Source of the DNA: Balanoglossus misakiensis | Lineage: Eukaryota; Animalia; Hemichordata | Direction: 5' to 3' | Assembly: GCA_040954595.2 (NCBI GenBank) | Contig: CM082583.2 | Coordinates: 8,480,254 to 8,544,253 of the forward strand | Length of the DNA stretch: 64,000 nt | In this document: piece by piece, positions 4,992-64,000 of the stretch | How positions within the stretch are numbered: the stretch's first letter is position 1 | Layout of the letters: every line of letters starts with the position of its first letter | The notes under the pieces: generated by a model | Told to the model about the DNA's origin: nothing | Database searches by the model: none | What the model saw: the letters and a program-made list of their open reading frames with translations, nothing else | Translations under genes and position numbers: made by a program

Positions 4992-7738
4992 TCACACTGT
5001 CTCACTGAGCTGTACATAAAGTTTACTCCCAAATGGAGATATATACTGAATCCCTGCCTCGGTAAATACTTTCTTCGGAATGCCAACATCGCATATGTAC
5101 AGAGTGCCAATGTTGTGGGAGATGGGCAGCGGCAGGCAAACTGACAGAGTATACCTCGTCTCGATTTCCTGCTCGCAGGGCGGATCCAAACTAAGTACTG
5201 GCGCTTTGTTCTTGTTGGCCCACTGGATGACATCGCGGTACCACTGTTGGTCGTTCAGGAAAGAGTTCTCTCTGCAGTCCATGGCATTTATGATGAGATC
5301 CGCTGGAGAGTTTGACAGATCTGAGACAAAATATGAAAGAGTTTTTTTATTCAGACAATTGTCCTCATATAAATCAGCAGATCACTGTCCAGTTTTCACA
5401 TAGACTATGATGGTGACCGTGAGATGGGGCCTACATGTACATGACAGAAATGGAAGTAGCAGTAACACAGCATATATCCTAGCATACAGAACTTGTGACT
5501 TGTCACATGACAAGAATCTGCATTCAAACAACCCTCTTCAACTGACCTTTGACAGACTGAGTCAGTACACCATCTGTCTGCCTGTAAATTTCCACTTCAG
5601 TGGTTAAGCACTCCACCATTTTGACAAAACTCGGCAGGAAAACTGTGACGTCAACATCTTGGTTGGCCAAATGCCTGGCACAGCTGACCCCCTGGGCACC
5701 AAAGAAATGGGGTCCGCACAGCACAATGATAGATGGCCTTTGTTGAACATTGTGAGGAGTGAGTCTGCAAGACAGCACACAAACATACAATTAACTTTTA
5801 AGCTGCTCCTCCATAGGGGTGCTTGTACACTAGTGAGATTAAATTTCAAAAGACCTATCTCAAAGATAACAGCATTATAAGGAACCTGTTGAGCCCAGTT
5901 TGTAGTCAGTTCACAAAGAAACTCAGTCACTGTCACATATTTGTTTTATTTATGGAAGGCCAAATAAATTTTGAGCAAAGTGATTGCAATAGTACTTATG
6001 CAATAGTAGGGGAGGCAACACTCATACCTGCTTGTCCCCCCGAGGTTCGCTATGGCAACATGGCACCCTGCCAGTCCAACCAGTTCTATCCTTTTAGCAG
6101 CACTCAGCCCCCACTTTTCTGCAGATTGAAAGAGCTTCTCTCGCAGTTCATTAGATACGGCAGGGACACGAACTCCGTGGGCTGAAAAATATATCAATGT
6201 AGCTGAGGTAAGACCAAATTTCTCCACTTTCAATGGAAAAAAAGACAAAGAAAATGTTAACCACATAATTTTAAGAAACTTCTATAATACTCACTTGAGT
6301 TGTAAGTCTTGAGACCAACACTTTGAGTTTGAGGTACAACAATATCTTTCACCAAAAGTGACTGGTTTAACACATTCTCATCGTGCCTGTAATTCTTCTT
6401 TTTCTTGTTGATCTCCTCCAGAGTCAACTCGTCGTTGCTCTGGGTTTTGTTGATCTCTTCAAATATCGCCGCTTTGTCAAACAGAGCCAAATTCTTCTCA
6501 AAGTCAAACTCCATCATGTATGTATCGTCGATGGGGGCGCTGAAACACGCAGCATCCCTTGCCTTCATTTTCTGACCGCTTTTCCCGCCTTCTATGGCTC
6601 TAGGTGCGCTGCTTGAAGCCTTCTTCCGCACATCCATCGAACTTACTGCAATGGATACATCAGAAAACATGGTCAGCTATATCCCCCGGGGGCCTGGGGT
6701 CAGGCAAGACATTTATCATCATTCACAAGACCCAATTTAACTTACTGAGTTCAAACTTACCCGAATTATTCCTTCTCCTCCCAAATGAGCTGCTCTTCCC
6801 AGTTCCCAAATAATCATCAGTCGTTGCATAAGTGGGATTTCTCTGGTTCCCCTTCACCTCCCCATTGTCCTGCGTCCGGACGCTGAAAGTTACCCCACCC
6901 GCGTTCAGCGGTGATGTACTGTCCGACTTCTTCAGTATTGTCTGCAGCTGTGACGTGTCGCCATTCACTCTCAAATTGTGCACCGGCACACCACTGCCAT
7001 TCATTCTGGAAGCACTCTCGGGGCAGGAAGAGGACAGATTACTAGGAGCAGTGTCCGCCCTTCTTATGCCCTCTGACCTTTTACCTTTGCCTGGGGTGTG
7101 TTTCTGGGCTTTCTCTCCCCTGAGTCCAGCGGTCGACGTTTGAAAAGTATTGTTTGCCACTTTTTTTGGGTAGACATCAATACCGTTGTGCAGCAACGTA
7201 TTGTTATTCTCATTCTGGCCTTTCCCAACATTTTCAAAAATGGTGTTCTTTGTGTCTGGCAGGTCAGCACTCTTGGCTTTCTTTGGCGTCGACCTCACAC
7301 TATACTGCTTTTTCTGTTTCTCTTTTTCGAGTTTTTCTTTTTCCACATCTTCAGCAGTCTTCAGGATTTTCAAGTCTTTGATGTCGCCAGCACTGTCAAT
7401 AGATAGATTGGTTAATGTTGCATTGAAACATGTACAGTCCTAAACCTTTTGTGTATGTGCTAGTTGAAAAAGCATACAGTTCAAGAAGAATCCTCAATCA
7501 AGAACAAGTTGAAGGACTTACAACATGATTTTAATGATCAGGATGGTGGAATCGGTTGTCGAAGTAACTCTCACCTTATTGTTAGTTCCGGCACAATACA
7601 CTTGATCCCATTTCTGTATGCTTGGACAAGTGAGATGGTTTGCAGGCTCTTGTCGACCATAGACACATGGCCTTGGTAGACGCCCAGCGAATCTCCGCAA
7701 TGGAGTGACACCATACAACCCAAGAACTCTTCCGACAT
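4992..7738 (-). CDS. EDC3: Enhancer of mRNA-decapping protein 3 (Lsm + FDF + YjeF-N domains), ~615 aa, 6 coding exons
   Basis: Exons 7738-7575, 7392-6761, 6645-6295, 6181-6028, 5764-5547, 5320-4992; all GT-AG and frame-consistent (1848 nt). N-terminal Lsm MSEEFLGCMVSLHCGDSLGVYQG...SAGDIKDLKIL, FDF motif EFDFEKNLALFDKAAIFEEI..YRHDENVL, YjeF-N region CGPHFFGAQGVSCARHLAN and LYICDVGIPKKVF..PFGSK. Confidence 0.95.
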
Positions 7739-10278: not shown

Positions 10279-10833
10279 TTACTTCTTAGCTTTCTTTGCA
10301 GCGGGCTTCTTTGGTTTTGAAGCCTTTTTGGGAGTTTTCTTGGTGGTAGCCTTCTTTACGGGCTTCTTCGGTTTCTTGTCCGCCTTCTTCGGCGACTTGG
10401 CCTTGGGTGCTTTCTTGGCCGCTGCCTTCTTTGGTGACTTCTTGGTCTTCTCAGCCTTCTTTGGTTTCTTGGCCTTGGTGGGTTTCTTGGCTGGCTTCTT
10501 CTTAGGGGTCGCCTTGGGCTTCTTGGCGGGTTTCTTCTTGGGCTTCTCCGGCAACTTACCGACTCGTAGACGACCGGTAACGCCTGAGGCTGTGGAGCCC
10601 TTGGGGCGAACGAGCAGACCAGAATCGAGACCAGATTTCAGAGCGCGGCGGAGACTGGACGTGAGATGAGTTGGGCTGACCGTTGGGTAGTGCGACATGA
10701 TGTAGCCCTTGATGGCCTGCACCGAGCTGCCTTTGGTGTCTTTCAGCGTCTTGATAGCCTCAACAACCATGTCGAGGGTCTTGGGGTGAGTTGCTACGGC
10801 CTTGGCCTTCTTGGCGGGAGCAGATTCAACCAT
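10279..10833 (-). CDS. Linker histone H1, 184 aa, intronless, globular domain of H1.8/B4 type
   Basis: H15 winged-helix domain HPKTLDMVVEAIKTLKDTKGSSVQAIKGYI...GLLVRPKGSTASGVTGRLRV, then a K/A/P-rich tail with SPKK/TPKK motifs. Confidence 0.97.
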   Translation of the reverse strand: MVESAPAKKAKAVATHPKTLDMVVEAIKTLKDTKGSSVQAIKGYIMSHYPTVSPTHLTSSLRRALKSGLDSGLLVRPKGSTASGVTGRLRVGKLPEKPKKKPAKKPKATPKKKPAKKPTKAKKPKKAEKTKKSPKKAAAKKAPKAKSPKKADKKPKKPVKKATTKKTPKKASKPKKPAAKKAKK

Positions 10834-10914
10834 TGTGAGTAGTTAGATAATTAACTGTTCGCGAGTAGAGGATACGAGTCTTTCAGTGGTAATGATAAGC
10901 AACTGGGAGCGCCG

Positions 10915-13322: not shown

Positions 13323-15264
13323 CTTACACCAAAAGATTATCTCTCTGTCTATATACGCTTCCCCCGGGGACGGTTCCACAGTCCTGTACCCTGAGTCTGG
13401 TCATATATCTTATCCCGCACGACAGACCTACGTGAAGTGATGAGAGTCTTCCTGGTCAACTCAATTATCATATAAAGACCTTCTGGTACGATTTCACATC
13501 ATATATACCAACCTACGCAATTAAAACATGTTGTGGGGATGCTGTTATATAGAGAGCAACGCGTGATGAAACAGTGGCATCATTTTGCTGCAACATAGAT
13601 GAAAACTAAGCTTAGCACAATAGAAAAGCATGCATGGAATATTTTAATACATTTACCGTTTCTGCATATCGTAACACTGAAATGAACGGTTGCATTGTCG
13701 CTGTACAAAGCAAAACAGTGACACATGTTACTGAAGATGGCACACGAACAGATGTCCATTTGCATTGACAATTTATGCAGCGTAACACAGTTCGACAAAG
13801 ACAGAAAGTCCAAATATGGAGACGCGATGTGACAATGGGATTATTGCATTCACGAAAACGTATATATGGTATATGTGCATGAAATGGCCGACCATTCAAT
13901 ACATCCGTGGGAAACTTTCTTTAGACTATTATTTAAATTACACGGGGTTATGTACATATCATTATGAAACATCAAAGACCTTAGAAATGAACACGTGGAA
14001 ACGGACTTGTGTACCAGACAGTCAGAGCGACCGATTGAGGCGATCAGAGCGCCTCGCTCTTCATAAAATAGCGCATTTTTTGTCTCAGAACCCGGTTTCA
14101 TCAGAATGATGTCTTGGAATAATTTTGGGGAAAATAACGTTCGTTCCCCATCAAAAGAGCTGGTATCAATGAAAGGGGAAAACTTAATTCTGTGTGACCG
14201 AATGGCATTTTTTATCAGTGGTCGTGTAAAATCACCAAAAAGTCAGATTTTTAATTTTTTTGTCCAAAACATTTCGATCGCATAGTGTCAAGATATCTTT
14301 GCACAGAAACACTGACCCCCCAATCTTGCACATAATTTATGTGACGCTCCACTGAACAAGGCAGTTACCCCTCTGAATCACACAAGCCTCCTATGTTTCC
14401 ACGCCCTAAAGTCATGCAAGGAGAAACAGCAACAGTAGGCTTACTCACTGCGTTTTTTGACCACCGCATACACGTACGACGTTAATAATTAATTTACCTA
14501 ATGAGTGACGACTGTTATTGCAAAAATTAGAGTTGGACAAGCCTCCTGTCTACTAGTATCACCATGTTACCTCCATGTTCATATACGAAGTCGTCAAAAA
14601 GCTGGATTTGGTTTCGGTCAATGGTACTCTATGGCATAGTTGTTTCATCATAATGTATTTTGTAAATATGAGAATCTTAGATGTTTGCATAATTATGCAG
14701 AATGCTAGCGCTCAATTTATAACCGCTAATCGCCCTGAAAATGACTGTTTAATGTTTTACATCTTTGCTGTGGATTTGCTCTATCTGGTGCATGAAGTGT
14801 CAACGATTTATCATGTCACGACCTTTCAGCGCAATGAATGGAGTCCTTATTAGCATAAGAAAGCTTTGTACAAAAGCTTATGTTATTTGATTGCTTTGTA
14901 TTTACTTCGCTAGGCGCAACCATTTTGGGGAGGATAGTCCAATTTTTTTCGAAAATGACTTGTCAACGTCGTGGATACAGTTGCATCCACTAGTACAATA
15001 ACCCTTCTGCATTCAAAGTAAAGAATTGACTTTCCAACGTGATTTGCCTCAAACACCCAAAGTGAACCCCCATGATACATTAAGTTTTTAATCCAACCCC
15101 CTCTGGTGGATTTTAGAACTGGGTATATATGCAGCAGGAAGACCTCTGACTTTTAAAACTACACTATGGGATGGCACACGACCAGCTGACCGATTGTATG
15201 TTGCTCTTTTAATTTAACATAAGCAACACATTGCAGCACTGCAGTACTTTGGATCAATAGCAAA

Positions 15265-18026
15265 ATGGAGATACTACTAGAGGCCACGGTTCGGCTGACG
15301 ACACCGGTCATGTTGCAGACGTACGCCGGCGCGGGTTTCACGACGAACGGTTCTATGTCGGGGAACGACACGGGCAACTCCACGGACGACGATGAGTTAT
15401 CCCGCGCCCGTGGCACGAACCCAAGGATCGAGGCCCTCAAGAAAGGGAACGATATCATGATAACATGTGTACTTGTTTTTATCATGGTGGGAATGGGCTG
15501 CTCCATCGTGCCGAAGGATCTGCTGAAACCAATACGCCGCCCGGCAGCTCTGTTTATGTGCCTTTTTGCGCAGTTCGCCGTGATGCCTTTGGTGGCTTTC
15601 GCTATGTGTCATGCGCTGCAGATGGCCTCCAACCAGGCCATAGGAACATTGGTCATCGCTTCTTCGCCAGGTGGACCCGCAGCTAATTTATTCACCCTTA
15701 TCATGCAAGGGGACATTCCGCTCAGGTGAGATCTGGGTTGTGTTTTACGGTCTGCGATTTAGGCCTATTGTGTATTGTGTATTGGGCGGCATACACCACT
15801 ACCCATGTACATTGCACTATCCACAGAAAGAATATTCACTACCCATGTACATTGCACTATCCACAGAAAGAATAGGCTTATCGATTCGATCGGTCCTTCG
15901 GTATTCGCATGGAGCAGGAGCACATACTGTTCCCGTTTTTTTCAATGAATTATCAGTATTTTATAATATACATGTACTTAATGATATATGAGCGTTTGCA
16001 ATAGCGTATACATTGTGAAGAACAAGTTGACCTTGAGCATTATGAGCGCGGTCAGGCTTATGCGCGTCGTATTGTTGTTGTTTTGAGGTATGTTTTTCAC
16101 GCATTTACCACACGACACCACGTACATATTGTTTCTTTTATGTGGTATTGACCGACGGTATATGGTATACATGTATTGTTCGAATCTGCCACCTTGACAG
16201 CACCGTGGAGGTAGGAGCCCGCGGACCGTGGGGTTTATCAAAAGGATTTGGGTCGGTTGACTTTGAAAGGGTCCTTTCAAACCTACCCTAACCCTAAACC
16301 CCACGGCGGCTTCCTACAATTATTGCAGCAAGGGTATGGTGGGGTATGGTCCCTAGAGAAACTGGGGTGTATGGTATGGCGAACCATCCGCTCTTTACTA
16401 GTATTTTCGATCTCACGCATAGCACCACTCAAGAATTTAGTATTTCTGTTGTTCGTGTCATTGTTACTGGTTCCATGATATCGGTGCCAACTGAAATAGA
16501 CAACACTGTTTTATTGTTCAGCTGCGTTACGGGTAGGTTTTCTAGGGAAGATGTAAAACAACGTCAGTGCTGTTACCAAAAACCGTTGTCGTCGTCGTCG
16601 TGTAGATACAAGAACAAGACAGCTATATAAATTCAAATTCCTGAACTTTGCCCCTAAGGGATAACGACGACTGTCACACTGGGGGATTCATTTGTCACCC
16701 GCCTTGTCAGTGATAACTCTGCCTGCCCTGAAGTGGCCTTGTGGCATAAATATTGCATACTTGTCGCCCTCTCCGACACTTCACTTGTCTAAACTACGAG
16801 GGGACAAAGTTCACCCATGCAGCCAGACACAACCGACTGCGGAATGTGCGAGTCATCGCTTGTCTTCATAGAAACTGGTAGGCTATACATGCCTCGGCCG
16901 CGTGGGCTATTGAAAAAATTACCACAAGCACAACATAATTCTCATCCCCACAGGGATACGCATTGTAAAAAACACGCAGAGATTTTGCTACCAGCAAATA
17001 ATATTTCCATGATCCATGGAATGGAAATCATGTCGACCGGTTTTCCCTCTTGAAAATGATGATTGCCCCCCCCCCCCCCCGCGCTGTATGCACTATGGTC
17101 AGACGCCCTTCCATGAGACATTCACGGTGCTCGAGAAAGAATGTACTAACTTAGAAATAAAAATCATTGAACTGACATCGATGTGTCATGTCTTCCCACA
17201 GTTTATGCCTGACAACAATATCCACGATTCTATCCATGGGGTTGATGCCCCTCTGCCTATTCGTCTACTGCCGGAGTTGGACGGACGTTGGAGTGGTCAT
17301 TCCCTTCGTCAACATCGCCATAGCCCTGGCGCTGGTCATGTTGCCGCCCATTCTTGGAATGGCGTTGCGATGGAAACTGCCGAAAGTTTCCGTCGTAGTT
17401 GGTAAGGTGAGGAGACTACATATTGCATTGTTGGACGGTATTGAAATGGCGATATGCCATGATTCATTTGTATTCTGCTATCTGAAAAACAGAAATACTA
17501 GTAGGGCAACTACAAAACTTATGAAATGTGCTCTCATCGATTTCCATTGTTCATATAGGTTGCTGGGATTATCGGCATGATTGGCATCGTGGTAAACCTC
17601 GGACTCTTGTGTTTCATCAGCCCGGACGTGCTGGTCAGCTCATGGCAAGGCTATATTCTGGCCGTCCTCATCCCCGTCATCGGATTCGTCACCGGTTACG
17701 TCATCTGCGCCATATTCAAGCGCACCTACAAAGTCTGCCACACCGTCGGCTTCAACTGCTGCATGAAGAACGTGCCGGTCGCCATCACCCTGATATCGTT
17801 CTCCTACTCGGCCACGGAATTCGGCGAGCTGAGCATGGTGCCCTTGCTCTACGGAATTTTCAGTCTCGTCGACGGCATCGTCATCTGCATCGTCCTCAAG
17901 CGGCTGTGCAGATCTCGGGCCGCGGCCGAGGAGGGCGCACTCAAGAAAGCGCCCCCAGGCGACGAAGGTGACTACGACACTGATGTGGAGATTGAGTACG
18001 TATATGAGTACATCACCGTTATGTAA
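15265..18026 (+). CDS. SLC10 family sodium/bile-acid symporter-like transporter, ~377 aa, 3 exons
   Basis: Exons 15265-15725, 17202-17406, 17559-18026 (1134 nt, frame-consistent). Family motifs MVGMGC, AQFAVMPL, SSPGGPAANLFT..GDIPLSLCLTT, multiple TM helices, N-terminal N-glycosylation sequons. Confidence 0.92.
15797..15874 (+). repeat. Tandem duplication, 38-bp unit twice with 40-bp period
   Basis: CACTACCCATGTACATTGCACTATCCACAGAAAGAATA at 15797 and 15837, in SLC10 intron 1. Confidence 0.9.
16642..16813. mobile_element. MITE-like element in SLC10 intron 1
   Basis: Terminal inverted repeats TGAACTTTGCCCCT and AGGGGACAAAGTTCA, with internal repeated TTGTC subterminal motifs. Confidence 0.5.
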
Positions 18027-44100: not shown

Positions 44101-47100
44101 ATGTGGTGTTCAAGATTCACCGTTGTTGTCGCCTATGTTCTCCTGACTGCAGGTAACGAGTTATGACATAATTATATTTCTTTTGTTTCCGAGGTGGGGT
44201 GTTTTTCTTCGAGATTTGCGACGGGTGTACGTGATTCGCACTTATACGTGAGCAGGTGCTCAGCGTGCCAAATAACAGGTGTACACCACGGTTGACACAT
44301 TCTTTCGCTTTCTCTAAATTAACAGCGAACTTTGATCAGTGAAAATCATCACGCTTTGCCTCTGTCAGTCGTTGATCTTTACTCAGAACAGAAATTCACA
44401 AATAAGAATATTACACACCATGTGATCAACTTTAAACTACCGCTTTGTTTGATACTGCTGTATCATCGCTAACGAGCCACTTTCAACATAAAGATTTTTC
44501 TTCGATGTCACCTTTTGGTGTGATGGTGGTGCCAAACACAATGGAATAACATCTAGTCACACGCCATTTTTACAGTAGGACGTCAAACGTAAGCTCAGCA
44601 CAGTCCTTCGGTCTCAAATTTAAGATCATGTGACTAAAAAGAGTCGTTATAATGTTATCTGCTGTGGATATCGTGAATGGAGCAGGCAATAGTTCTGTTT
44701 CAATTGATTTTAGCAATGTACGATGTTTAAGTTCAACATCCAGTCTGAATTGGACTACACACCGCGATTGTTGACATCTTTTATTCTTTTTGCACAAAAT
44801 GATGGAGTGTTTACCCGACTGTAATCTTCTCCCGGCCTTTGTATGCCAAGTGTGTGTACAATATGGTCTCGGGCATAGTCGGTCTCGGGCAGTGTGCCAG
44901 TTCCACAGAACGTGTATATAGACCCTAACATGTATAGTGCAGCGGCCAATATTATCACAAAATAGAAACAAGATAAGAACACTTCGATGAAATATATGGA
45001 ATATTTCGCAGCTAAAACATACTGGTACGTATACTTCACCGTATTTCAATATCCATAAGTTGACTACATGTATATGTTTTAATTGTCACCTCCATTCTTT
45101 TTAAGAACCCACAGTCAGTACATACGAAGACATGAAGTTCGTCTTTGATGGAACTGGCTACTCGTCGCTGTCATCCCAGATAACCATACCGACCTTCGAC
45201 GCAATGTCGGTGTGTTTCTGGATGCAAACTACCGGTACCAACCTGGGCACCCCGTTCTCTTACTACGACTCCGTCAACGACGAGTTGGCCGTCTACGTCT
45301 TCAGCCACGGGGGTGCCTTGGGCATATACAGCTGCGGCACGCTGATCACGGGAGTCACTGGTAACGATGGCAACTGGAATCACGTGTGTCTGACGTGGGA
45401 GGACAGCGGACAAGTCTACTTCTACTGGAACGGCGAACAGACAGCCGAGAAGACTGGATGCATGACAAATGGGAACATCACGGGGGGCGGCTGTTTCCTG
45501 ATCGGCCAGTGGCAGACGAGTTGTACATCAAACTCGTTCCAGGCGACGGGAAGTTATTCGGGCAGTGTAGCCTTTTTCAACATATACAGCAGGGTGTTGA
45601 ACGAAACTGAGGTGGCCACATTGGCCTCTAACTGTACGGAGAACGGAAACGGCGACGTCTTGGCTTGGTCCGATATCAGTAACTCAACGCTGACAGCGGT
45701 CACCGTTGAAGATGCTGATGTTTGTCGTAAGTATTTGTATGTTTGTTTGTTTGTTTTTGTCGATTGATTGATTGATTACTTGACTGACTGACTGACTGAT
45801 TGATCGATTGATTGATTTATTCACCAGCTTGTAACGAGACAACCGCCCCCGTCGACGGCACAGTTGCAGTGACGGGCACCGGGATCAGCAGAGGTGACCA
45901 GGCAGTCTATGATTGTGATGCCGGCTACGATTTGGTCGGTGCTGATAACGCCACGTGTACGAACACCGGTTGGTCGTATGACGTACCCCAGTGTTCAGGT
46001 AAGCAATGAAGTGGTTTGAAGAAGACGCTCTGCATTTATGTCACCGGATTCTTTTCTATTGGAATTGTTGGTGAACACATGTATTTTCCTTTTATTGGTG
46101 TCAAACATTAAGGCTTATCAATTGCGGGAACGATTTTTGACAGTCACTCTTGCTCCATAACTTCAGACACCAACGAATGTTCTTCTAACAATGGTGGCTG
46201 CAACCAAACATGTGTCAACATCGACGGTTCTTATTACTGCAACTGTACAGATGGCTACGAACTGGATGCTGATGACGTTTCGTGTAATGGTAAGTCTTCT
46301 TTGGCCAATCAAGTGTTTTTCATTGATTATGTTGTGCCAAGCTGTCGTTTATTCTTTGCTCATGTTCAATTTTGCTCCAAATCTTCAGTATTGTCTCATT
46401 TTCAGACATTGAATTGTATCTAAATTATGTCTGGTTAAACGTTCGTTAAGGTTGGCCGACGTCTCCATTAAGGTTGGTCGACCTCTCTCAATCCACTCTT
46501 AGCTGCTGCATTACATGTACATATACGGCAAAGCGACATGCATTATACGGTATATGTACTATTGTTATGATTTGTTGTGTCTTAGATGTAGATGAATGCT
46601 CTGCGAACAACGGTGGCTGTGGTCAAACCTGCGTCAACACCGACGGCTCATATTCCTGCAGCTGTACAGCCGGATACGAACTGGATAACGACACCGTAAC
46701 ATGTAATGGTGAGTCTTCTCTGCAGGCCAAGCGATCTGCTACTCACACGACGAGGTCTGGCTAATGATAATTCCTAGCTTATTCAAAAGACGCCTTTCGG
46801 AAAATGTCGTTCTTCTTCGTCTGGTGTCATGGTGACAGGAGCTCATTTGAAATGAAGTGTTGTTACTTTTCAGATATAGACGACTGCTCCGATAACAACG
46901 CAGGCTGCTACCACACCTGTGTCGATGTCGGCGGGTCTTTTGAATGCGGTTGCAATGCGGGCTACGTATTGGATGACGACGGTGTCATGTGTAACCGTAA
47001 GTAACTCTTGACATTCTCTATGATAACCAAACCATCTCTACAGCATTGCCTGATAACGTAGTCTTCTGAATTATCATGTTTATCAAAAAGAGTCGGCTGC

Positions 47101-48197
47101 GAATGTAGAAAAGGGGTTTGGTATCCCAAATCGACTGATGGTGAAGACGACGATGATGATGTACATTTTTATTCCGGCCTGCCGACTTACAAAACATTGA
47201 CTGTCACAGATTGTCTATGTGTCTTTTTATGACATCGTGCAATACATGTACTTATTTCTATACTTTTTATTTTTTCCAGTTATGTCAGGATTAGGTGAGT
47301 GGCTCTTGTTTAAGGATCCAAACAAACACGATCACATCCTATTTTTTCGCGCTTCCCGGGAAAAAAAACCCTCAATATTTCCAGATGTTCCTCACGCAAA
47401 CAATTGACCTCCTTGATAAAGAATGATTGCGATTTTCCACCATGTCCACTTTTGGTTACCAGAGGGAAAGCTAACAACTGGAACAATTTTATTGCAGATT
47501 TGACAATTTCGGACGTAAATGTGACCTCTCCTGCCGATCTGGTCTATACAGCGGATCTGGATTCCTTCGTCACCTTTTACCTCGTCATAGACAACATCGG
47601 GGACACTGCCCTGGCGGCAAATGGTGCTGGAGAGAGCAATTACAACATATCCTTCTACTTCAGCCAACTGGATGACCTGGACGCCACTGGCGTGAACCAA
47701 ACTACCGAGTCGTTCCCTGTCGACCTGAACAGCGCCACCAACTTAGCCATGGGTGTAGCCGGGTCCTCGTCCCTGACGATCACCGACGTGCAAGTTCTCG
47801 TCAATGTCCCCGTCGAGAATTGCGACAGCTACAATTACGCATGCTTTCTGGTGGCGCTGTCCAGCACTCTCAGCGACACGGAGTCTGACACTACAAACAA
47901 CGATTTATGTGTCCCTTTTACCGACGGGTCTGTTGGACAGTTAACTTGCTCGGGTAAGTGGAGGAGTAGAAAAAAGAAAGTTGCACGTACATGCACTGTG
48001 GTAACTTCTGGGAAAGATGCACACACTGTTACGATAGAGTGCCTTAGAAGAGCACACCACTGATTGAATTGTCTGTGATCTCATGAGGTGTCTTGTGGTT
48101 TTGTTTTGCAGGGTCAACTCTCAGGCTGGATTGGCTTCTTGCAACTGTGTTGGCATCATTCCTAGTGTTGCACGCGCACAGAAGTTTCATGCTATGA
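44101..48197 (+). CDS. Secreted or GPI-anchored pentraxin(LamG)-sushi-3x EGF_CA protein with an uncharacterised C-terminal beta-rich domain, ~589 aa
   Basis: Exons 44101-44152 (signal peptide [17 protein letters not shown]), 45106-45726 (pentraxin: [25 protein letters not shown]), 45828-45998 (CCP), 46167-46289, 46586-46708, 46874-46996 (123-nt Ca-EGF exons), 47280-47294 (microexon), 47498-47953, 48112-48197 (hydrophobic tail). All introns phase 1; 1770 nt. AATAAA at 48323. Confidence 0.82.
45762..45817 (+). repeat. (GATT)n/(GACT)n compound microsatellite in intron
   Basis: Visible tandem 4-mers. Confidence 0.85.
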
Positions 48198-50702: not shown

Positions 50703-50870
50703 TCACGACTCTGAAGACACACGTTTGTGTTCCTCTTGTTCCTGCAACTTTTTCTCCCTCGTCTCTTTGGAATACTGCACAAATATTGGTCTATAGATGT
50801 ACACACCACCAGCCACTCCAATGGCAGTCATGACGACCATTTGCATAAATGTCAGCCTTTTCCTTATCAT
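50703..50870 (-). CDS. PIGBOS1: PIGB opposite strand 1 microprotein (mitochondrial outer membrane), 55 aa
   Basis: MIRKRLTFMQMVVMTAIGVAGGVYIYRPIFVQYSKETREKKLQEQEEHKRVSSES resembles human PIGBOS1 as recalled (RRLTF.Q.....G.AGGVYI..P.F.QY.K). Lies head-to-head with PIGB. Confidence 0.9.
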   Translation of the reverse strand: MIRKRLTFMQMVVMTAIGVAGGVYIYRPIFVQYSKETREKKLQEQEEHKRVSSES

Positions 50871-51809: not shown

Positions 51810-54800
51810 ATGTCGCTGGAAACGGAACTCAGACAGAGATCGCAGGTCAAAAAGCCCGAAGATGAGGCTCCAGGCTCCAATGATGAAGATGACGAGATGA
51901 TGGAAGATGAAGATTCCAGGACAACAGAACAACTCCTCAGGGAAGCAGTCAGCGAAGGGGAACTGGATGATTACGAAAGCATCAGGCGGCAAAAGGAGTA
52001 CTTGGAGAGATTGATTGCCGAGGAACGATTGAAACAGAGGAACCAGTTTTTCCTTGAAAGCGTCAAGTTTTCTCCACTCCGCCTTTTCGGTGTTCTGCTC
52101 CTGGTCAGATTTTTGAATGTGTTCCTGGTACAGACATTCTATGTCCCTGACGAATATTGGCAATCCCTGGAAGTTGCTCACCATATGGTCTATGGATATC
52201 CTTTAAATACTTATTAGTAAATCAATTCATCCCGATGATATTGTTTCAAAAAGGACATTTTGTAATTTAACATCAGGGGTAATCTTGTATTGTATAACCT
52301 TAACATTAAATACATACGGGCACTTGACCTGGGAGTGGAAGGCTGGAATCAGGGGGTACACTCACCCGTTGATGTTTGCCGGTTTATTCAAGTTTCTGAA
52401 GTGGCTGAATATCGATCATGCAATGGTTCTGGTAAGGATAAAACATGTGAATGATTTCCCCATTCTCCCTTTCATCACAACTCTAGGGTGACTTCTAGAA
52501 AGTTTGGTAGCCTTTGAAGTTGCTCAATCCATAATGGAAGCCTGTAACACCAGATAGCTAAGCATCTTCTGTTAGTCGGATTTCAATATCCAGAAATCGA
52601 ATCTGTCCTGTAATATCTGACTCCTGCATTCACAGATTCTGATGCCAAGGCTCCTCCAAGGCTTCATTGCTGCCGTCGGAGATGTGTATCTCTACAAACT
52701 GGGTCAGAGGCTGTTTGGATCAGAAATGGCGTACTGGGTGGTATCCTTTGAAAGAATACAGTGAATATGGCAGGTGTTTCTGGTGACTCTGTTGTGAATA
52801 CAAAGGGCAGTGCAAGAAGGAAGCAAACAAAGAAACAAATCACTAGTAACATCAGATCTCTTGTGCAATATGGACTTTTCCTTGACAGACGCATCAGTTG
52901 CTATGCTACCTGACATCGTGGTTTGTATGTTACATAGCAACGCGGACATTGTCCAACTCAACTGAGATGATACTGTTGATCGTTGCCTTCTACTACTATC
53001 CGTGGCCTGAGGAGTATTTGGATGACAAAAAGAAAAAGTAGGGTAGATTTTCTGCGACTGGAGTCAGTCTGATCAGCTACTTTCAGCACAGAACCAAAAG
53101 TGGAATTTGGAGAGTTTTTCTTCCCCAAGCTGCGTGTGTATTCTTTTTTGGTTGTATTGTTTGCCCAAATCATAATTTGTGGCTAGTCATGTCCATTCAT
53201 ACTACTCCACAGGTTTCCAAACTGGATATATCTGTCCATAGCTGCTCTTGCCTGCATCATACGACCCACGGCTGCTATTGTGTGGTTTCCTCTGTGCGCC
53301 TGGCACTTTGTCAGGGCTGAAAGTAAACTCAGATTAATCTTTCTGGGTATTTTACCTGTCGGGTAAGTTTTACTCAGTTTTCCTTCAGTGGATACTTGAT
53401 GTTAAGATATTCTTAGTGCATATAAAACACTTATACATCTTAGGCCTTGCCGGTTGTGGTAATGACTTTACTTATGATTTAAAAATGATTCTTTATATAT
53501 TTTTTTGTTCAGAATGTGTGCTGCGGCATGGTCAGCTTGGATTGATAAGATTTTTTATGGCCAGGTGAGTTTTTCACTTGGAACTAATTTTTTGCTGTTT
53601 TCATCAAAATAACTGTCCCACTGGACTAAAATATAATCCCATTGCAAATTCTTACTTCAGTGTTAGATCCATCATCTGAACTTTGTGAGAAAATGAAGAT
53701 TATTTTTATTACATTTCAGTGGATCTTTGTGCAATACAACTTCTTCAAGTTGAACTTTTTTGAAGACATCGGTGCCAACTATGGCTCTCACCCGTTCTAC
53801 TGGTATTTCATCACTGGGGTGCCTATCATTCTGGGAACACACATTGTTCCATTCTACTTTGGAGTCCAACAATGCTGGAAAGATTCCAAGTACAAAGAGT
53901 TGATCTATCTGATGCTATGGACTGTTATAGTCTACAGGTAAGGCAATACCGTTATCCTGGTGCCAACATCTTGGGATTTTTTTGTAGATTTCAAAACTTG
54001 CTCCCCTATTTCACATCTTTCATTCCTCCCAATGAAACTATAACCACATTTGTTTACAAGTAAAGGAGGGTTTTCCTGACAAGTCTCATGTTAATTTATT
54101 CAAGCTGTTTTCTTTTGTATTTTTTTTGTCAGTGTCCTTAGCCACAAGGAATTCCGCTTTCTATCAGCCGTATTACCAATAGCCATGCTGTTCTGTGGTA
54201 GGTGTCCATGTGTAGTCTAATCATAACACTACTGAAAGTGTTAATTAAGTACAATAAATAAAGTGACTGACACAGTGCCGTCATAAAGCTGTGGTATTAA
54301 CTGACAAAAAAGGATAATTTTGACTTGTGTGAACTGTGAACATGTTCAAACACACCTCAAGTTCCCTGCTTGTCTTTATGTAGGACATATCCCTGTTAAA
54401 ATCCTGAAAACTTTCAAAAGTAAAGTGGCCGACCTCTCACACATGGCATCTTCCTTTCACAGGTATGGCAATGCACAACTACAGCAAAAAGGTCTCCTGG
54501 GGTTCCTTCCTCATTCTGAGCCTGCTCGTCACCAACCTTCCGGTAGCGCTCTACTTCGGCATGTTGCACCAGCGCGGAGTCATGGATGTGATGCCCTACC
54601 TGCAGAATCTCTGCCAGAATGCCAAGGACACCAAGAGTATGCCCTCGGTGACTTTTCTGATGCCCTGTCATTCTATGCCTTACTACAGGTAATGTTTGGC
54701 AAAGTCAGAAATGGGAAATTTGGAGCAAACTATGGTGATGGATGGGAGTTTGGATTGGTGACATACCAGTGTATGTTACACATATACATTTGTATCATGC

Positions 54801-55640
54801 GCTGGGAACTTGCAACAACGATGCCCTTTTTTGTAAATTTCAATTTATACCGAAGAAGAACCACATTTTTTTCTCTTACAGTCACGTACATTACAAGATA
54901 AACATGAAGTTCTTGGACTGTTCACCAAACTGGAAAAACAGAACCCTGTACGTGGAGGAAGCTGAAAGGTTTTACAAGAACCCCCAGAAGTGGTTGACGA
55001 CCAGATATGGCCGAGAGGAAAAACAGCCCACCCTGTTGATCTTCTTTAGTAGTCTGAAAAGTGTAAGTAAATAATAACACTCCCATTTCAGGAATAGAAT
55101 CTGTCTGACAACATTAATATTCTAAAGGAGGCATACACACCCAGGTTTAGTGACTGGGAAACGACTCGCACTTAAGTTTTGATTTGAACATTTTCTTCTT
55201 TCTTCAGAGAATCAAGGCATTTCTCAAGGAGCATCACTACAAAAAGGTATGTGTTGCGTCTCCGATAGCATGGTCAGCTGACGATATGGTGTTTGTGTTC
55301 ACCACCTGCAATCGGCAACAATCAGTTCGCAGTATATGTGTGGCTTGCTCTTTGTGATTAATCTTTGTAGGTCAAAGTTCACGAGTTGGTATCAGAGTAG
55401 GGTCCCGGTCGTAGTTCACAAGTTGCTGCTTTAGGTGTAATACTAGGGCAGCACTGAAAAATTCCTGAACAACCCTGCATTCACATTAAATACAGTAACC
55501 TTTTTATTTGCTTCCAGGTGACTTCTTACTTCCACACTCATTTTCCCGAAGGAAGAATTGGAAAGAAGGTTCTTGTGTATCGGAAATCGCCAGATATGCC
55601 TCCCGACTTTGGTGATGATTTTAAGAATATAAGAACTTAA
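51810..55640 (+). CDS. PIGB: GPI mannosyltransferase 3, ~600 aa, 12 coding exons
   Basis: Exons 51810-52195, 52314-52431, 52636-52740, 52898-53037, 53213-53362, 53513-53564, 53720-53937, 54133-54197, 54463-54688, 54882-55062, 55208-55246, 55518-55640 (1803 nt). Motifs [73 protein letters not shown]. Confidence 0.96.
52196..52313 (+). other. U12-type AT-AC intron in PIGB
   Basis: 5' site ATATCCTTT, branch CCTTAAC at 52298-52304, terminal AC at 52312-52313. Removal restores VYG|YGHLTWEW. Confidence 0.92.
52741..52897 (+). other. U12-type GT-AG intron in PIGB
   Basis: 5' site GTATCCTTT, branch TTCCTTGAC ~52878-52886 close to the AG at 52896-52897, no polypyrimidine tract. Frame is preserved. 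Confidence 0.85.
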
Positions 55641-57979: not shown

Positions 57980-60900
57980 TCAGGGTCTACGGAGGAACCA
58001 GTTGGACTGGTCGTCCATCTGGTAACTTCTCCACTCCTCACGATGCTCGTACCGTTCCAAGAACCAATTGTACATGTCCCACATGGTGATGCCCGTTCTG
58101 TCATCACTGCGAGCCTGGGCTCGATGAAAGAACCAATTGTCAACGGGGTCCGTGTCGTCCTGCCACTTGGGCTGCTGCCCCCTCTGCTCTTCCCGGTCTT
58201 CCGCCCGTCTGAAGAACCAATCGGCGTCCGCGTCTTTTTCTCTAGTACTGTCGGGCTGTTTCTCTTGATTTTCACCTTGTGCTGCCCTTTCATAGGAAGG
58301 ATCATTGAAAGCTGGTTGTACAACAACAGTCTCTTGATGGAATTCTCGTCTCTTGGTTCGCGCACGGCCCTTTGCCTCCCCTTTCTTCTTGTGTCCGAAA
58401 CCTTGCTTTTTTTCGTCCTTCACTTCCTCTTCTTCCTCCATCGATTCCTTCTTCAGTTCCTTGTCCGGCTTCTGTCGTGCGTCTTCCAGTTCCTTCTCCT
58501 GCTGTTCCCGTGCCTTCTGCTGCCTCCTGTTGTGTTTCTTGGCCCGCTTTTCCATGTCTTCCAGCACTTCCTCGAAGTCTTCCTGCAGTTCTTCCAGGTC
58601 CTTGTCGTCCGGGTGCGGGTCGTCCATGAACTCTTCCAAGTCGCTGAGGAACTCCTCCAGTTCCCTCATGTCCTTCTTGTAATGGCGGTCTTTCAACCAC
58701 TGCCGGTAATGCAACAGCTCCACATAAAGCTTTCGGGCGTCTTCTATCTGTTTGCTGATGCACTGCTTGTTGCCGTGGCACTGAATGTCGTAGTCCTCCT
58801 CAAATGTTTCCCAGTTCCCGATGTTCTCTTCTTTCCGGATCCTTTCTTTACTATTCTTTTTACAGTCTTTCTGTTTGTTGCAACCCAACTTACGTCTGTC
58901 TTGTTTCTGTTTGTTCTGTTCCTGCCTCGCCGTTCTCTTTTTCTCTTCAAAGCTACCATCCTCATCCTCGTTACCCCAGAAACCAAACCACGACTCCTCA
59001 TCTCTCTCCTCACCGGGTAACCTGATCTTTTTGAGAAACTTGCGGTTCTTCACCCTGCCTGGTCTGTACTCTCCATCAACGACAGCTGGGCCTTCCTGGC
59101 GCGCCTTCTTCATTTTTTCCCTCCAAATCTTTTGCGATTTCTTGTAACGGAAATCGCCCGTCTCTTTGTCGTATATCTTGTCCTCCAAAGAAACTCGTTC
59201 TTCCCCGGGTAGTCTGATGAAACTTCTTGGTCTCTTCTTTGCCTTGTTGTTTTTGTCTTCTTTTTGCGAACCCTGGCCATGATATCTCTGTCTTTTCTTT
59301 CCCTTCTGTAGAACTTGTCCCACAGTATCCTTGACACCTTGCCAGGTTGAATCCACCGTTCTTTTGATCGTATCCGTCACAGACTCCAGGGTTGAGCTCG
59401 TGTCCTCACCGTGAAGGATCTTATTGGAGTAGTTCTGCACCGACTGCCAAGTCTTCTGGATGCTCTCCCCGACCTGCGTCACTTTCGACTTGAAATCGTC
59501 CGAGGTGGTGTACGTCTTCAACTCCTGCCACTTGGAGGACACCGTCTCCGAAACCCTCGACCAGGCGGACCGGGTCTTCTTGGCGAAATCGGCAAACTCT
59601 TCCGACTTTGTGAAATTCTTCACCTTGTCCAGGTGTTCCTTCAGCTGGTCGTTCAACGATGTCACCGCCTCCTTGCTGGCGTTGACGTACGTGTTGAACT
59701 GTTCCGACTGGACGAAATCGTTCACCTTGCCCCACTGGTCCCTGATGGTCTCCGAGAGATTACTGATGGCGTCCTCACTGTCGGAGTACAGCTTGGATAC
59801 TGTCTCGCTGAAGTTTGCCAGAGGTGTGTGCCGCAGAGACCTCATGGCTTCCGAGATGTTGACCCGGGGCACAAACATGTTAACGCAGGTAAAGAAGCTC
59901 AGGGCTGGGTCGTCGTCGTCGCTACATGACTTGGATTTGCCGTCGTCGTGGTCATTCACAAACAAGCTCTTCCACATTTCAGCTCTACCTTGGGAGAATT
60001 TCAGCTCCTCCGACAACTTCTGAACTCTCTCCTGGCACGAGACTACAAGGCTGATGTTAACTTCACTTTCCTCCTCAGCAGTGTCCAGATCTTCTGTCCC
60101 TTCACCGTTCGCCCCGACTGTGGCATCAGCTGTTGTGTCATCACTCGCAGCGTCCGAATGCACCTGTTCATCGGCGGTGTATTCCTCATCTCCAATGTCG
60201 TCTTCCAGCATGGTGAGGGCTTGCTCAGTTTCATCAGCGATCCAATCATCCACACGATCTGAAGCCAGGAGCTCTTCCGTTTCTTCCGGTCCATCACCAG
60301 TGTCGAGATCAGATTCATCAGGTTGATCAACCCAGGTGTCTTCTGAGACCATCTCATTCTCTTCAGGCACTTGGGAGTCAGTCACTTGCATTTCATCTGC
60401 TGCATTCACGTCACCACTCGATGACTCGTCTGACTTATGAGTTGTAGCATGCTGATCAGTTTGACCCGACGTCTCGGCACTGATATCATCCTTCACCGGA
60501 TCAGATACCAGATGATCAGGGTTCAAGGTCTCCGTTTCACCACTGACGACTTCCGACTCATCAGATTCAATCATGGTGTCAGTTTGGTCCTCTGGTGAGC
60601 CTGGTTCCACATCCACTGGAGAACACTCTTCAGAATTCTCACTTTCATAGTCATTGGGACTTTCTTGTGCTACAGGTTGTTCGGATGGTGACTCTCGCCT
60701 CTCTTGCCCCACAGGTGACACAGTGTCCTGGCTTCCCGCACTGCACACTGACTGATCAAAATCGGATAAATCCACGCCATCAAACACCATTTCCAGTACT
60801 TCTTCCTTCTCCAAACAACTCAGAAGCTCGTTCTGAAGCGACTTCAGTCTCTGAATCTGTCCCTCCTGAATTTTCTTCTTGTGGTGGTATTCATTGTTTG

Positions 60901-63523
60901 ACCCTGCAATGGAAGTTGAAAAACTTTAAGTACAGGCTAAACAAGTTCAAATCAAAACACCATAACACTGGCATTTGAACTGTACTTACCAATAAAGTGG
61001 CCAATCCCCAGAGCGATCCCTGCAGTCACAACTAATATCAGGACCCAGTTCAGTTTATTATTCAGTCCATCATCTCTGTAGTGGCGATAGCGACGGACAG
61101 CGGGTTTGGTGGCTCCGGGCGTAAGCTCATCCAACGCCGTTTGAGAGTCGTAATCCTCGATGACAGACAGGTCACTGTCCGTGTCATAGTCGTTCAAACT
61201 ATCAGGGCTGTCTGGTCGGTCGCACGGATCGTCGCCACCTTCAACGGCAACTGCAGAGAGAGAACAGGCTTGGTTTGTGATCCCTTTCAGTGCAGACTGA
61301 CAAGAGTACGTGGCAAACTATGCAAATTCAAACACATTTGCTGTGGAAAGTGGAGATCTGACAAATCACAGATTGTCCACATGTGGTCTTGTAAAATAAG
61401 GGGGGTTGCTACCACAGAGCAGAACGAGGTGCTGTATTGGCTAAAGAGGACATCAATAAATATTCAAGAAATTATCATTTGTTTTCAGCTAAAGCCCCTC
61501 TATAGCTAAGCTACAGGCACCACAACCAACGGCTTGTAATGAGGTCTCCCACCATCGAGTCAATCATTCAATTAACTGATGACAATTATTTGTTGTTGTT
61601 ATTTATTGTTGTTATTTGCATAGTTTTTTTGCAAAACACTTCTCATGTGTGTTTCTCATGTCCACAGTGCTGACAGTGTTAATGGTCAAGCCAGTTGGGG
61701 ATATGGAATGCACGCAAGAACCTTCTGCATGCCAAGCTACTACACTGATGCAACTAGAAACTTTAGCTAATTCCATGCTGTGACTTCAAGCTATACAGCA
61801 ACATAGTTAGTGCCATATTTCTTTTCACAATGTCAAGCTGCAGCTGAGATGCATGAGTTTGCGGGAAATGTATTGAAAGCAGGTTAAAAACTGCAGTTAC
61901 GCCAGCAACACATTAATGTAGATCACACTGGAGAAAAACATATCTGGATACACTGGCATGATGCACCTGAGGGACAGAATGGGTTGTTAATGTTGATGTG
62001 AAATTATAAAGTCGTGTACATGGAATGATGAAACACACAAGGTTTTGGTCCCCTGACATGCAGCGGCCAGAAATATACATCTGCATATCATCTTTTTTTG
62101 TGTTTTGATAATTTTTTACGGTCTCATGTGGAGGTCTCACTACTACCTTTAGGCGTCTTACGTGGTAAGAAACTGAAGTTTGAGAGAGAGGACGCTGGAG
62201 ACACACTGGTGCAGGTCGCGCAGGATGATGACAGTTGACCCGTTGCTTGGCAACCTACGCATCCCAGCCCGTCAGGAAAACTAGACGGCTCAATCCGCAC
62301 AAAGTCAGAGTCTGAACTGCTGCTGTCCTCGCTGAGGTGCTTGGGAATCAGGGTGAGGGGTAGTCTGTATGTCATGCCAACAGCACCTGAAGAAAATATT
62401 TTTAAAAGTTAGTAATTTCCAGAGTTGCTAAAAATGACACTAAATTGTACACAGCTTCTTAAAGAATACATAACTGGAACTGCTTTGGCAAGCGGCCTCA
62501 AATTTTATTTGCACTGCAGATGAGACATGATAATCACATGACAGAGTTTTGTATGATTTACCTTCCAGGGTTTCGTCGAAGTGGTTTGCCTCTTCACTCA
62601 ACATGCACGGCGGAACTTCTTCAACATGTCTGAGGTCACCATTACCATCGACTTCATCATCGCCAATAATCACTGTTTCAGTCGATTCCGCTATTTCTCT
62701 GCATTCAATGCGGTCTTTGTCTCCCTCGGCAACCGTGGTTTCATCCTCCTCCTCCTCCTCCTCTTCCCCCACAGTGAGAACCTCTACCTCCTCTTCAGGG
62801 ACTTCCACATCAATGGTTTTCGACTCCACGTAATCCACAGTAGCGGTCTCCTCGGCCGGCATTTCAAAATATTTGATGGGCTGCTTCACAGCGGTCACTT
62901 CAGAATCATCAGCACGCGCGACTTCAGTCCCAGTGTCCAGAGTTGAGATTCCATCACCTGTCGACTGCGACGTTTGTTCGAGGTGTGAAGTGTTTGAATG
63001 CTCTTCAAGACTGTCGATGTCATCATCGTCATGATCTTTACTGTGCTTGCGGTATTCTACGGCGCCGGTCTCCGCCTCCAGAGTGACAAAATCTGAGGAT
63101 GCAGAGTCACTGTCAACACCCTGTAAATACAAAACAGTGCATGTGGTTATCACTTTGCAAACCTAACACAAATGATACAATTGATATTTGTAAACTGCAG
63201 GAGTGTTTTCCTGAAATTTTCTAGGAAAAAAATTGTGACAAATAAAGACAAAAATTGCCTGGAAGAGAACAATTCTGCTATTTTTGTCATAATTTCTTGC
63301 CATGAAATGTCCAGAATTTGTGTGATGCAATCATGATCATAAGTGTTAATGCAAATGGGACAGTGACACTTCACTGTCCACATGGCAACACTGACAAGAG
63401 GCCACGTGGCAACACTGGAGCAAGACCAAACACCATCTAATTCCTTACCTGAATCTTGCCATCTTCATCCACCAAAGTCCAATCGGTTAGTGACTGCTCA
63501 CTATCACTGGAATTTGCTGACAT
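57980..63523 (-). CDS. CCPG1: Cell cycle progression protein 1-like ER-phagy receptor (type II ER membrane protein), ~1350 aa
   Basis: Exons 63523-63449, 63120-62562, 62386-62147, 61250-60990, 60903-57980 (4059 nt, frame-consistent). N-terminus MSANSSDSEQSLTDWTLV (LIR), FIR-like SDFVTLE, TM LNWVLILVVTAGIALGIGHFIG, long lumenal region. Tail-to-tail with PIGB. Confidence 0.85.
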
Positions 63524-64000
63524 GATGGGTCATTGGAATAATCTTCCACTCAAAAACTGTTTACCTGTACAACACAAACAAGGCTAGTACAGTGAAACCT
63601 AGGTACAAATGAACGATTGGATGTTGGCTGCTCTATAATTGTCTAGAGTGAAAAAAACAATATAATTTGTATAATTTAGTACAAAAACAATAGATCATAC
63701 TCAAACCTCTTTTAAACGGTTTTAGGGGGATATCTATTTACAAGGCCTGCTACAAGAGTTTACCGATCTTTGGTTGAGTGGGATATAAAGGAAATGTTTT
63801 CTGTTGTTATCTCACTGTGTTCGGATTAAAATTGAGGTCATAGGTTGACTGTTCTCCTTTTTGGATTAAAGTGAGGTCAAGGGTTGACCATTCTGTTAAT
63901 TTGGTCAACCGATACTGGGCAGAAAATAACTGAACTGAAATATGCCCCTGAAAAGATCAATGCCATTGTTTACCTCATAAAATTCTTTCTGTTGTCACCA

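Follow-up and report, generated by a model that had tools for sequence, protein, structure and literature searches.

An acorn-worm gene with the layout, motifs and locus of CCPG1, an ER-phagy receptor described as vertebrate-specific

A 64,000-nucleotide stretch of the genome of the acorn worm Balanoglossus misakiensis (GenBank assembly GCA_040954595.2, contig CM082583.2, positions 8,480,254–8,544,253; hereafter the window) carries a five-exon minus-strand gene that is almost certainly homologous to CCPG1, a receptor for endoplasmic-reticulum autophagy (ER-phagy) that binds ATG8 proteins through an LC3-interacting region (LIR) and FIP200 through FIP200-interacting regions (FIRs). It is very likely an invertebrate CCPG1 orthologue and, by analogy with the human protein, probably has the full dual ATG8- and FIP200-binding role. 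Four papers, the one reporting its discovery and others that followed (reviews among them), describe CCPG1 as vertebrate-specific. We conclude homology because the gene order is shared, because the protein belongs to a family spread across bilaterian animals with a LIR at the N-terminus, and because ungapped matches to vertebrate CCPG1 are seen by eye at the end of the transmembrane (TM) helix, at a Cys beyond it and in a CIR1-like helix. The initial annotation of this locus had called the gene a CCPG1 orthologue; its homology stands on these three grounds, and the orthology is probably shared with PBXIP1, which we take to be a paralogue of CCPG1. The gene probably predates the CCPG1/PBXIP1 duplication and would then be a co-orthologue of both. 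The features of human CCPG1 that the initial annotation had named, and the vertebrate-specific label, are found in print.

The coding exons (Table 1) all have GT-AG borders and join in frame to 4044 nt, encoding 1347 amino acids and a stop, with intron phases 0, 1, 1 and 1. We predict this splicing from its splice signals, its open frame and three RefSeq acorn-worm homologues that are collinear with it across all five exons, in agreement with the five-exon model first proposed. A search with the luminal region returned three proteins, from Ptychodera flava (75% identity), Saccoglossus kowalevskii (62%) and Glandiceps talaboti (61%); exon by exon, identity to the P. flava protein is 84, 45, 75, 85 and 65% for exons 1–5. 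The short first exon (75 nt, donor GTAAGG) lies outside the stop-to-stop frames of at least 50 amino acids, and the initial annotation had pointed to it as missing from the open reading frame (ORF) track. It is present and encodes 25 residues, including a final KIQ that the annotation had omitted, and it is supported by the starting Met and the collinearity shared with the homologues. Exon 3 has a second possible donor, 15 nt beyond the first, which adds five residues (1352 in total); the two donors are paralleled by P. flava isoforms X2 (62162) and X1 (62147). RefSeq names the homologues “uro-adherence factor A-like” or “uncharacterized”, and the former label, given by NCBI to the Ptychodera protein, was discarded as low-complexity naming. 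Upstream, at window 63533–63504 (minus strand), a 9-codon frame begins at an out-of-frame ATG 10 nt 5' of the start codon and overlaps the latter. Near 63565 lies a splice site resembling an acceptor, which points to a non-coding first exon farther upstream.

The protein contains a single strongly hydrophobic helix at residues 356–374, with a Kyte-Doolittle value of 2.26 against 0.97 for the next-best window, which argues for one TM helix and no signal peptide. It ends in GIGHFIG, as the initial annotation had it, with the final Gly split by intron 4, and is directly preceded by a basic stop-transfer segment, RRYRHYR. A type II layout is therefore predicted, with a single TM helix, no signal peptide, an N-terminal tail and a long C-terminal part. 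A homodimer prediction for the TM and post-TM helices, run with no alignment in use, scored 0.02. In seven short database fragments (P0034, P0049, P0058, P0061, P0064, P0065 and P0066), similarity ends just past the final Gly of the TM helix, which is what a shared intron at this place in other invertebrates would produce. Human CCPG1 probably has, as here, a phase-0 intron shortly past the LIR and a phase-1 intron within the final TM Gly.

For comparison with vertebrates, we matched residues by eye to the five-vertebrate CCPG1 alignment of Ishii 2023 (Suppl. Fig. 7A). Residues 353–374, which cover the TM helix, are identical to human CCPG1 at 10 of 22 positions without a gap, and both helices end in G-x-G-H-F-x-G. 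A Cys stands exactly 29 residues past the last TM Gly in the window protein, in human and Xenopus CCPG1 and in 38 of 57 invertebrate rows. The layout is also held in common: an N-terminal tail with a W-T-x-[VI] LIR near its start (W15 here, W14 in human), a single TM helix and a long C-terminal part. The human LIR has been given as W14-x-x-I17 (PMC5791736) and, in sequence, as CGWTVI (PMC7946963). The acorn-worm protein is longer (1347 versus 757 residues), as is its tail (352 versus about 215).

Conservation of this tail among the four acorn worms is confined to islands, namely the first 25 residues, SSDFVTLE, IK[YH]FE[MI]P, SD[FY]VRI[DE]P, SSL-x-x-F-x-F, EGGDDPCDRPDSPD and the approach to the TM helix. 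Exon 1 holds the LIR-like core W15-T-L-V18, which reads W-T-[LV]-V in all four; when the window protein's tail is shuffled, 3% of the shuffles have a W-x-x-[LIV] within the first 65 residues. The SDFVTLE, SDFVRIE and DLSVIE motifs were all located where the initial annotation had placed them. Its count of up to three FIR-like sites was upheld for two: site 1 (S34-D-F-V-T-L-E40, within an invariant SSDFVTLE) and site 2 (S238-D-F-V-R-I-E244, within SD[FY]VRI[DE]P) are kept in all four acorn worms, whereas the weaker site 3 (DSDLSVIE) is kept in three and missing from Saccoglossus. The tail contains six published-type FIR cores (psi-theta-x-x-gamma) against 0.70 in shuffles, none of 5000 of which reached six. 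Site 1 corresponds to human FIR2 (S104–E110) at six of seven residues, with Phe for Ile. In human CCPG1, D103, pS104, D105, I106, V107, T108, L109 and E110 contact the FIP200 Claw, whose I106 pocket should also accept an aromatic residue (PMC7946963). The FIR-like cores of the acorn worm nonetheless differ from the human ones in being aromatic and otherwise placed: no SDIE-type FIR1 follows the LIR directly, and site 1 lies 19 residues past the Trp. Two further islands were noted. IK[YH]FE[MI]P, conserved in all four acorn worms within an otherwise unconserved linker, is a possible further binding motif, and EGGDDPCDRPDSPD, invariant in the four, is a candidate cytosolic linear motif, whose DD-[RP]-[CIV]-[ED]-[SR] form recurs in 14 of the 47 long family members described below, including annelids and molluscs.

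The wider family was found with a profile (A1) of 180 residues around the TM helix, taken from acorn worms with site 2 included and the N-terminus left out, and searched against 1.84 billion proteins. It gave 67 matches at E ≤ 0.001 (22 at 1e-10), of which three were the profile's own source proteins and 64 were new. Among 20 of the 64 that were looked up, 14 were named and 6 unnamed; all 14 come from invertebrate bilaterians and none is annotated as CCPG1. Their genera are Apostichopus, Acanthaster, Diadema, Antedon, Branchiostoma, Owenia, Capitella, Tubulanus, Babylonia, Haliotis, Ornithodoros, Halotydeus, Penaeus and Timema, i.e. echinoderms, amphioxus, annelids, a nemertean, molluscs and arthropods (at least six other invertebrate phyla or subphyla). 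One false hit (P0052), with an N-terminal TM helix and no family motif, was removed before all counts. Motifs were counted in 47 proteins of at least 390 residues, the window protein included, leaving out 17 shorter matches. Of these, 36 have W-x-x-[LIV] within their initial 65 residues; shuffled tails gave 3.4 (maximum 12 in 1000 shuffles). This excess was seen although the profile held no N-terminus, and the conserved LIR proposed at the outset is kept well beyond acorn worms. By a tally with one extra row, Thr follows the LIR Trp in 23 of 37 proteins, and 26 of 37 have Gly at +7. A TM-region tree (56 rows, 80 columns, invertebrates only) placed the four acorn-worm rows as the smallest well-supported set, in keeping with an acorn worm close to Ptychodera as the source of the gene.

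FIR-like motifs are likewise widespread in this family. A strict S-[DE]-[IFY] pattern is present in 31 of the 47 proteins, against 1.2 in shuffles, with a density ahead of the TM helix 24 times that behind it. The published FIR consensus with two acidic or S/T residues ahead gives 64 sites against 14.6 (maximum 27 in 300 shuffles); this enrichment is to be read as partly circular, as site 2 was in the profile, the strict pattern was picked post hoc and the relatives are non-independent. Sites 1 and 2, being aromatic F-x-x-L/I, are canonical LIR cores too, so their sequence is compatible with binding of FIP200, ATG8 or both. The FIR and LIR consensus sequences overlap, and GABARAP also binds human FIR2, with competition reported (PMC7946963). 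A true CCPG1/PBXIP1 homologue could then work through ATG8 alone, with several LIRs like RTN3L or TEX264-type receptors, and the direct binding of FIP200 would then be a refinement made in vertebrates; the 16 long members that lack the strict pattern would fit. We consider this improbable: many arthropod-type members carry a non-aromatic S-D-I-[DE]-x-[IL], of the human FIR1/FIR2 type and unfit as a LIR, and site 1 retains the Claw-contacting residues S, D, V, T, L and E.

The locus supplies evidence of a different kind. The CCPG1-like gene is tail-to-tail with a gene for a PIGB-type mannosyltransferase of glycosyltransferase family 22 (GT22), next to which, head-to-head, is a PIGBOS1 microprotein ORF (such a frame, at 55 amino acids, is likely to be missed by ORF tracks). 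Pfam Glyco_transf_22 scored above cut-off in five of the six exon frames tested of the mannosyltransferase gene; automatic exon fitting left many alternative borders, and a search of PDB sequences with its first exon found nothing relevant. The gene has two introns of minor type, with U12-type donors and branch sites: one is AT-AC (ATATCCTTT donor, CCTTAAC branch), the other GT-AG (GTATCCTTT donor, CCTTGAC branch). Human PIGB is listed as an AT-AC minor-intron gene (bioRxiv 10.64898/2026.10.16.759739). From its position, its minor introns and its motifs, we infer that this neighbour is PIGB. In human, the gene order is RAB27A, PIGBOS1, PIGB, CCPG1, PIERCE2, DNAAF4 (PMC11972509). Human PIGBOS1 lies opposite PIGB, head-to-head, with overlapping first exons (PMC6814811), and a CCPG1::PIGBOS1 read-through indicates that those two are on one strand (PMC9315513). 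The window order of PIGBOS1 (minus), PIGB-type (plus) and CCPG1-like (minus) thus matches human 15q21.3 in both order and orientation, with the CCPG1 or CCPG1-like gene tail-to-tail with the PIGB or PIGB-type gene, next to PIGBOS1, in each, which makes an unrelated, convergent protein unlikely.

The predicted ER-luminal part, encoded by exon 5, is almost twice the vertebrate length. Over the end of human CIR1, residues 663–689 are identical at 10 of 27 positions (in Babylonia, 8 of 16 over the core), and C1082-x-G-x3-C1088 mirrors the C-x-G-x3-C that opens vertebrate CIR3. Block profiles built from the four acorn worms were run on the 64 other hits (E < 0.001), and detected the CIR1-like helix in 7, the amphipathic region (CIR2-like, with no clear residue match to CIR2) in 10, the Cys-opened, CIR3-like domain in 6 (the four named ones being echinoderms) and the C-terminal repeats in 12. 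AlphaFold2 gave a confident three-helix domain at residues ~1080–1190, opening with C-x-G-x3-C (pLDDT 79–92 over model residues 21–120). Foldseek with the C-terminal model found nothing at E ≤ 0.001, and in PDB the domain had no specific match: the best VIA hits (Z 8.4) were unrelated helical bundles, at chance level for such bundles. Residues 640–920 were modelled as long helices of middling confidence, in a model whose global confidence is low (pTM 0.28). In comparison with vertebrate CCPG1, an acidic luminal linker of about 250 residues replaces coiled coil A, and C-terminal Trp-Arg repeats are added. These follow [DN]-W-[FYL]-[FL]-x-R, often with A-x-x-R-x-x-x-R after it, and the window protein has four of them; 30 of the 47 long members carry such repeats, but neither they nor the basic regions were seen in the five vertebrate CCPG1 rows. 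As they are luminal, basic and aromatic, we would guess that they bind cargo or a partner. CCPG1 has reported roles outside ER-phagy, as does PBXIP1. A true homologue might therefore serve mainly as a scaffold or luminal chaperone, its motifs used for its own turnover only, and the long luminal part with these additions would suit such a job. We hold this to be quite improbable, given that the LIR is fixed at the N-terminus across phyla while the surrounding tail drifts, and that the same layout is required for ER-phagy in human cells (PMC5791736).

Several observations weigh against the CCPG1 identification. No vertebrate protein was recognisable among the 20 of 64 profile matches looked up or in the other sequence searches. 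Scanned against the Pfam copy used, the five exon frames and the three homologues gave no family above cut-off and no CCPG1 model (for vertebrate CCPG1/PBXIP1, CCPG1_N, PF27636, and CCPG1_C, PF27631). All matches to vertebrate CCPG1 were tallied by hand and carry no E-values. The Cys beyond the TM helix has shifted in chicken and zebrafish CCPG1 and is missing from mouse CCPG1. Past its two cysteines the CIR3 likeness is weak, and only hemichordates and echinoderms were found to have the domain (6 of 64 hits). A canonical LIR core is lacking from 11 of the 47 long members, several apparently incomplete at the N-terminus, with W-S-L-M in amphioxus. PIGB is separated from ALG9, ALG12 and PIGZ by position, minor introns and motifs, not by search. 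Finally, the ESM Atlas had no usable match for the luminal part, and its scores for the N-terminal part (residues 1–415 of the Ptychodera protein) were all below 0.9: an arthropod cluster came first (0.82), and chordate CCPG1_C/CCPG1_N clusters stood at ranks 2, 3 and 9 (0.79, 0.78 and 0.77), which is lead-level evidence. Word-based homologue searches returned the three acorn worms only; a word-based search with a 49-row alignment (A2) gave three proteins, one of them a known member and none vertebrate; PDB sequence searches found nothing relevant with exon 2 and only generic coiled coils with A2; and among metagenome contigs, none of 283 pattern matches was confirmed.

With no direct search link to vertebrates, and with acidic tails and coiled coils drawing chance matches (as for A2 and P0052), the protein might be an unrelated membrane protein that converged on LIR and FIR motifs, its CCPG1 likeness being low-complexity chance. 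Yeast Atg39 offers a precedent: described as a structural analogue of CCPG1 (PMC6971691), it is also single-pass, with a Trp-type Atg8-interacting motif and an Atg11-binding motif in a cytosolic N-terminus, and is a functional analogue with no claimed sequence relation. We regard this as extremely unlikely here, considering the three-gene order and orientation of human 15q21.3, the collinear LIR, FIR, TM-end, Cys+29 and CIR1 blocks, and Atlas neighbours from the CCPG1 Pfam families. Homology to CCPG1 thus remains our reading, and PBXIP1 (HPIP) bears on its finer placement. Atlas clusters named PBXIP1-like carry CCPG1_N/CCPG1_C and rank beside the acorn-worm N-terminal part, whereas acorn-worm synteny follows the CCPG1 locus. 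Our literature search, within the papers it covered, found no link between PBXIP1 and ER-phagy.

If the protein acts as human CCPG1 does, it would be inserted in the ER membrane as a type II protein, as suggested by the lack of a signal peptide and the basic residues before the helix. Its disordered cytosolic tail would bind ATG8/GABARAP via W15-T-L-V18 and the FIP200 Claw via sites 1 and 2, the latter strengthened by phosphorylation of the preceding serines. Sites 1 and 2 might be handed over from FIP200 to ATG8, which is plausible because both are also LIR cores and competition is reported for human FIR2. The CIR1-, CIR2- and CIR3-like helical blocks and the Trp-Arg repeats may hold luminal cargo, and ER fragments would be enclosed and delivered to the lysosome.

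Table 1 Features of the CCPG1-like gene and of other genes in the window.
Feature	Window position	Strand	Residues	Remarks
Coding exon 1	63449..63523	-	1-25	LIR-like D-W15-T-L-V18; phase-0 donor; 76-84% identity to three RefSeq acorn-worm proteins
Coding exon 2	62562..63120	-	26-211	FIR/LIR-like site 1, then acidic, poorly conserved linker; exon identity 19-45%
Coding exon 3	62147..62386	-	212-286	62386-62162 in the 1347-residue form; donors 62162 and 62147; FIR/LIR-like site 2 and conserved SSLSNFSFLP block
Coding exon 4	60990..61250	-	287-374	EGGDDPCDRPDSPD block, weaker FIR-like site 3, RRYRHYR, single TM helix
Coding exon 5	57980..60903	-	374-1347	Predicted ER-luminal; parts in the next seven rows
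Post-TM helix		-		With Cys403
Acidic linker		-		
CIR1-like helix		-	663-689	
Amphipathic helices		-	~735-915	
Basic region		-		
Three-helix domain		-	~1080-1190	Predicted
C-terminal repeats		-	1268-1347	Four [DN]-W-F-[FL]-x-R
Site 1	63076..63096	-	34-40	
Site 2	62289..62309	-	238-244	
Site 3	61156..61185	-		DLSVIE at 61173-61156
IK[YH]FE[MI]P island	~62854..62877	-	107-114	
EGGDDPCDRPDSPD island	61197..61238	-	291-304	
PIGB-type GT22 mannosyltransferase gene	51810..55640 (about)	+	~600 in total	About 12 coding exons; some borders approximate; tail-to-tail with the CCPG1-like gene
AT-AC minor-type intron	52196..52317	+		In PIGB-type gene
GT-AG minor-type intron	52741..52888	+		In PIGB-type gene
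PIGBOS1 microprotein ORF	50703..50870	-	55 in total	Pfam PF23670, E 1.2e-16, 61 bits against a cut-off of 27; head-to-head with PIGB-type gene
Exons with FDF domain	6257..7439	-		Pfam PF09532; likely EDC3
Linker histone H1/H5 gene	10279..10842	-		Single exon; Pfam PF00538
Sodium/bile-acid symporter exons	15223..18026	+		SLC10-type; Pfam PF01758
Pentraxin/laminin-G exon, then further frame	45105..48063	+		Second frame 249 aa long and unmatched in Pfam; the gene probably encodes a secreted multidomain protein

In the literature covered (titles, abstract openings and passages, with subscription journals little represented), we found no report of an invertebrate CCPG1, and the available passages of PMC12992112, PMC3641089, PMC4911550, PMC10480639 and PMC7597553 held nothing against its novelty. 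A published PSI-BLAST with CCPG1 luminal regions had found nothing outside CCPG1, and newer family databases may already include some invertebrate members. The finding corrects a statement repeated in the ER-phagy literature and extends a known system; the mechanism is not new. A bilaterian-wide family, if true, would date a receptor for ATG8 as well as FIP200 to before the protostome-deuterostome split, with the LIR, the acidic FIR-type core, the TM end, one luminal Cys and the CIR1 helix kept for more than 500 million years. Going further, we tentatively suggest that dual ATG8/FIP200 ER-phagy is ancestral in animals, served by one gene that has stood beside PIGB and PIGBOS1, a regulator of the unfolded protein response, since the bilaterian ancestor, and that the luminal Trp-Arg repeats are an ancestral cargo module lost by vertebrate CCPG1. 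ER-phagy could then be studied genetically in model sea urchins, amphioxus, annelids and arthropods, whose genes of this family are now labelled “uncharacterized”, “girdin-like” or “golgin-like”.

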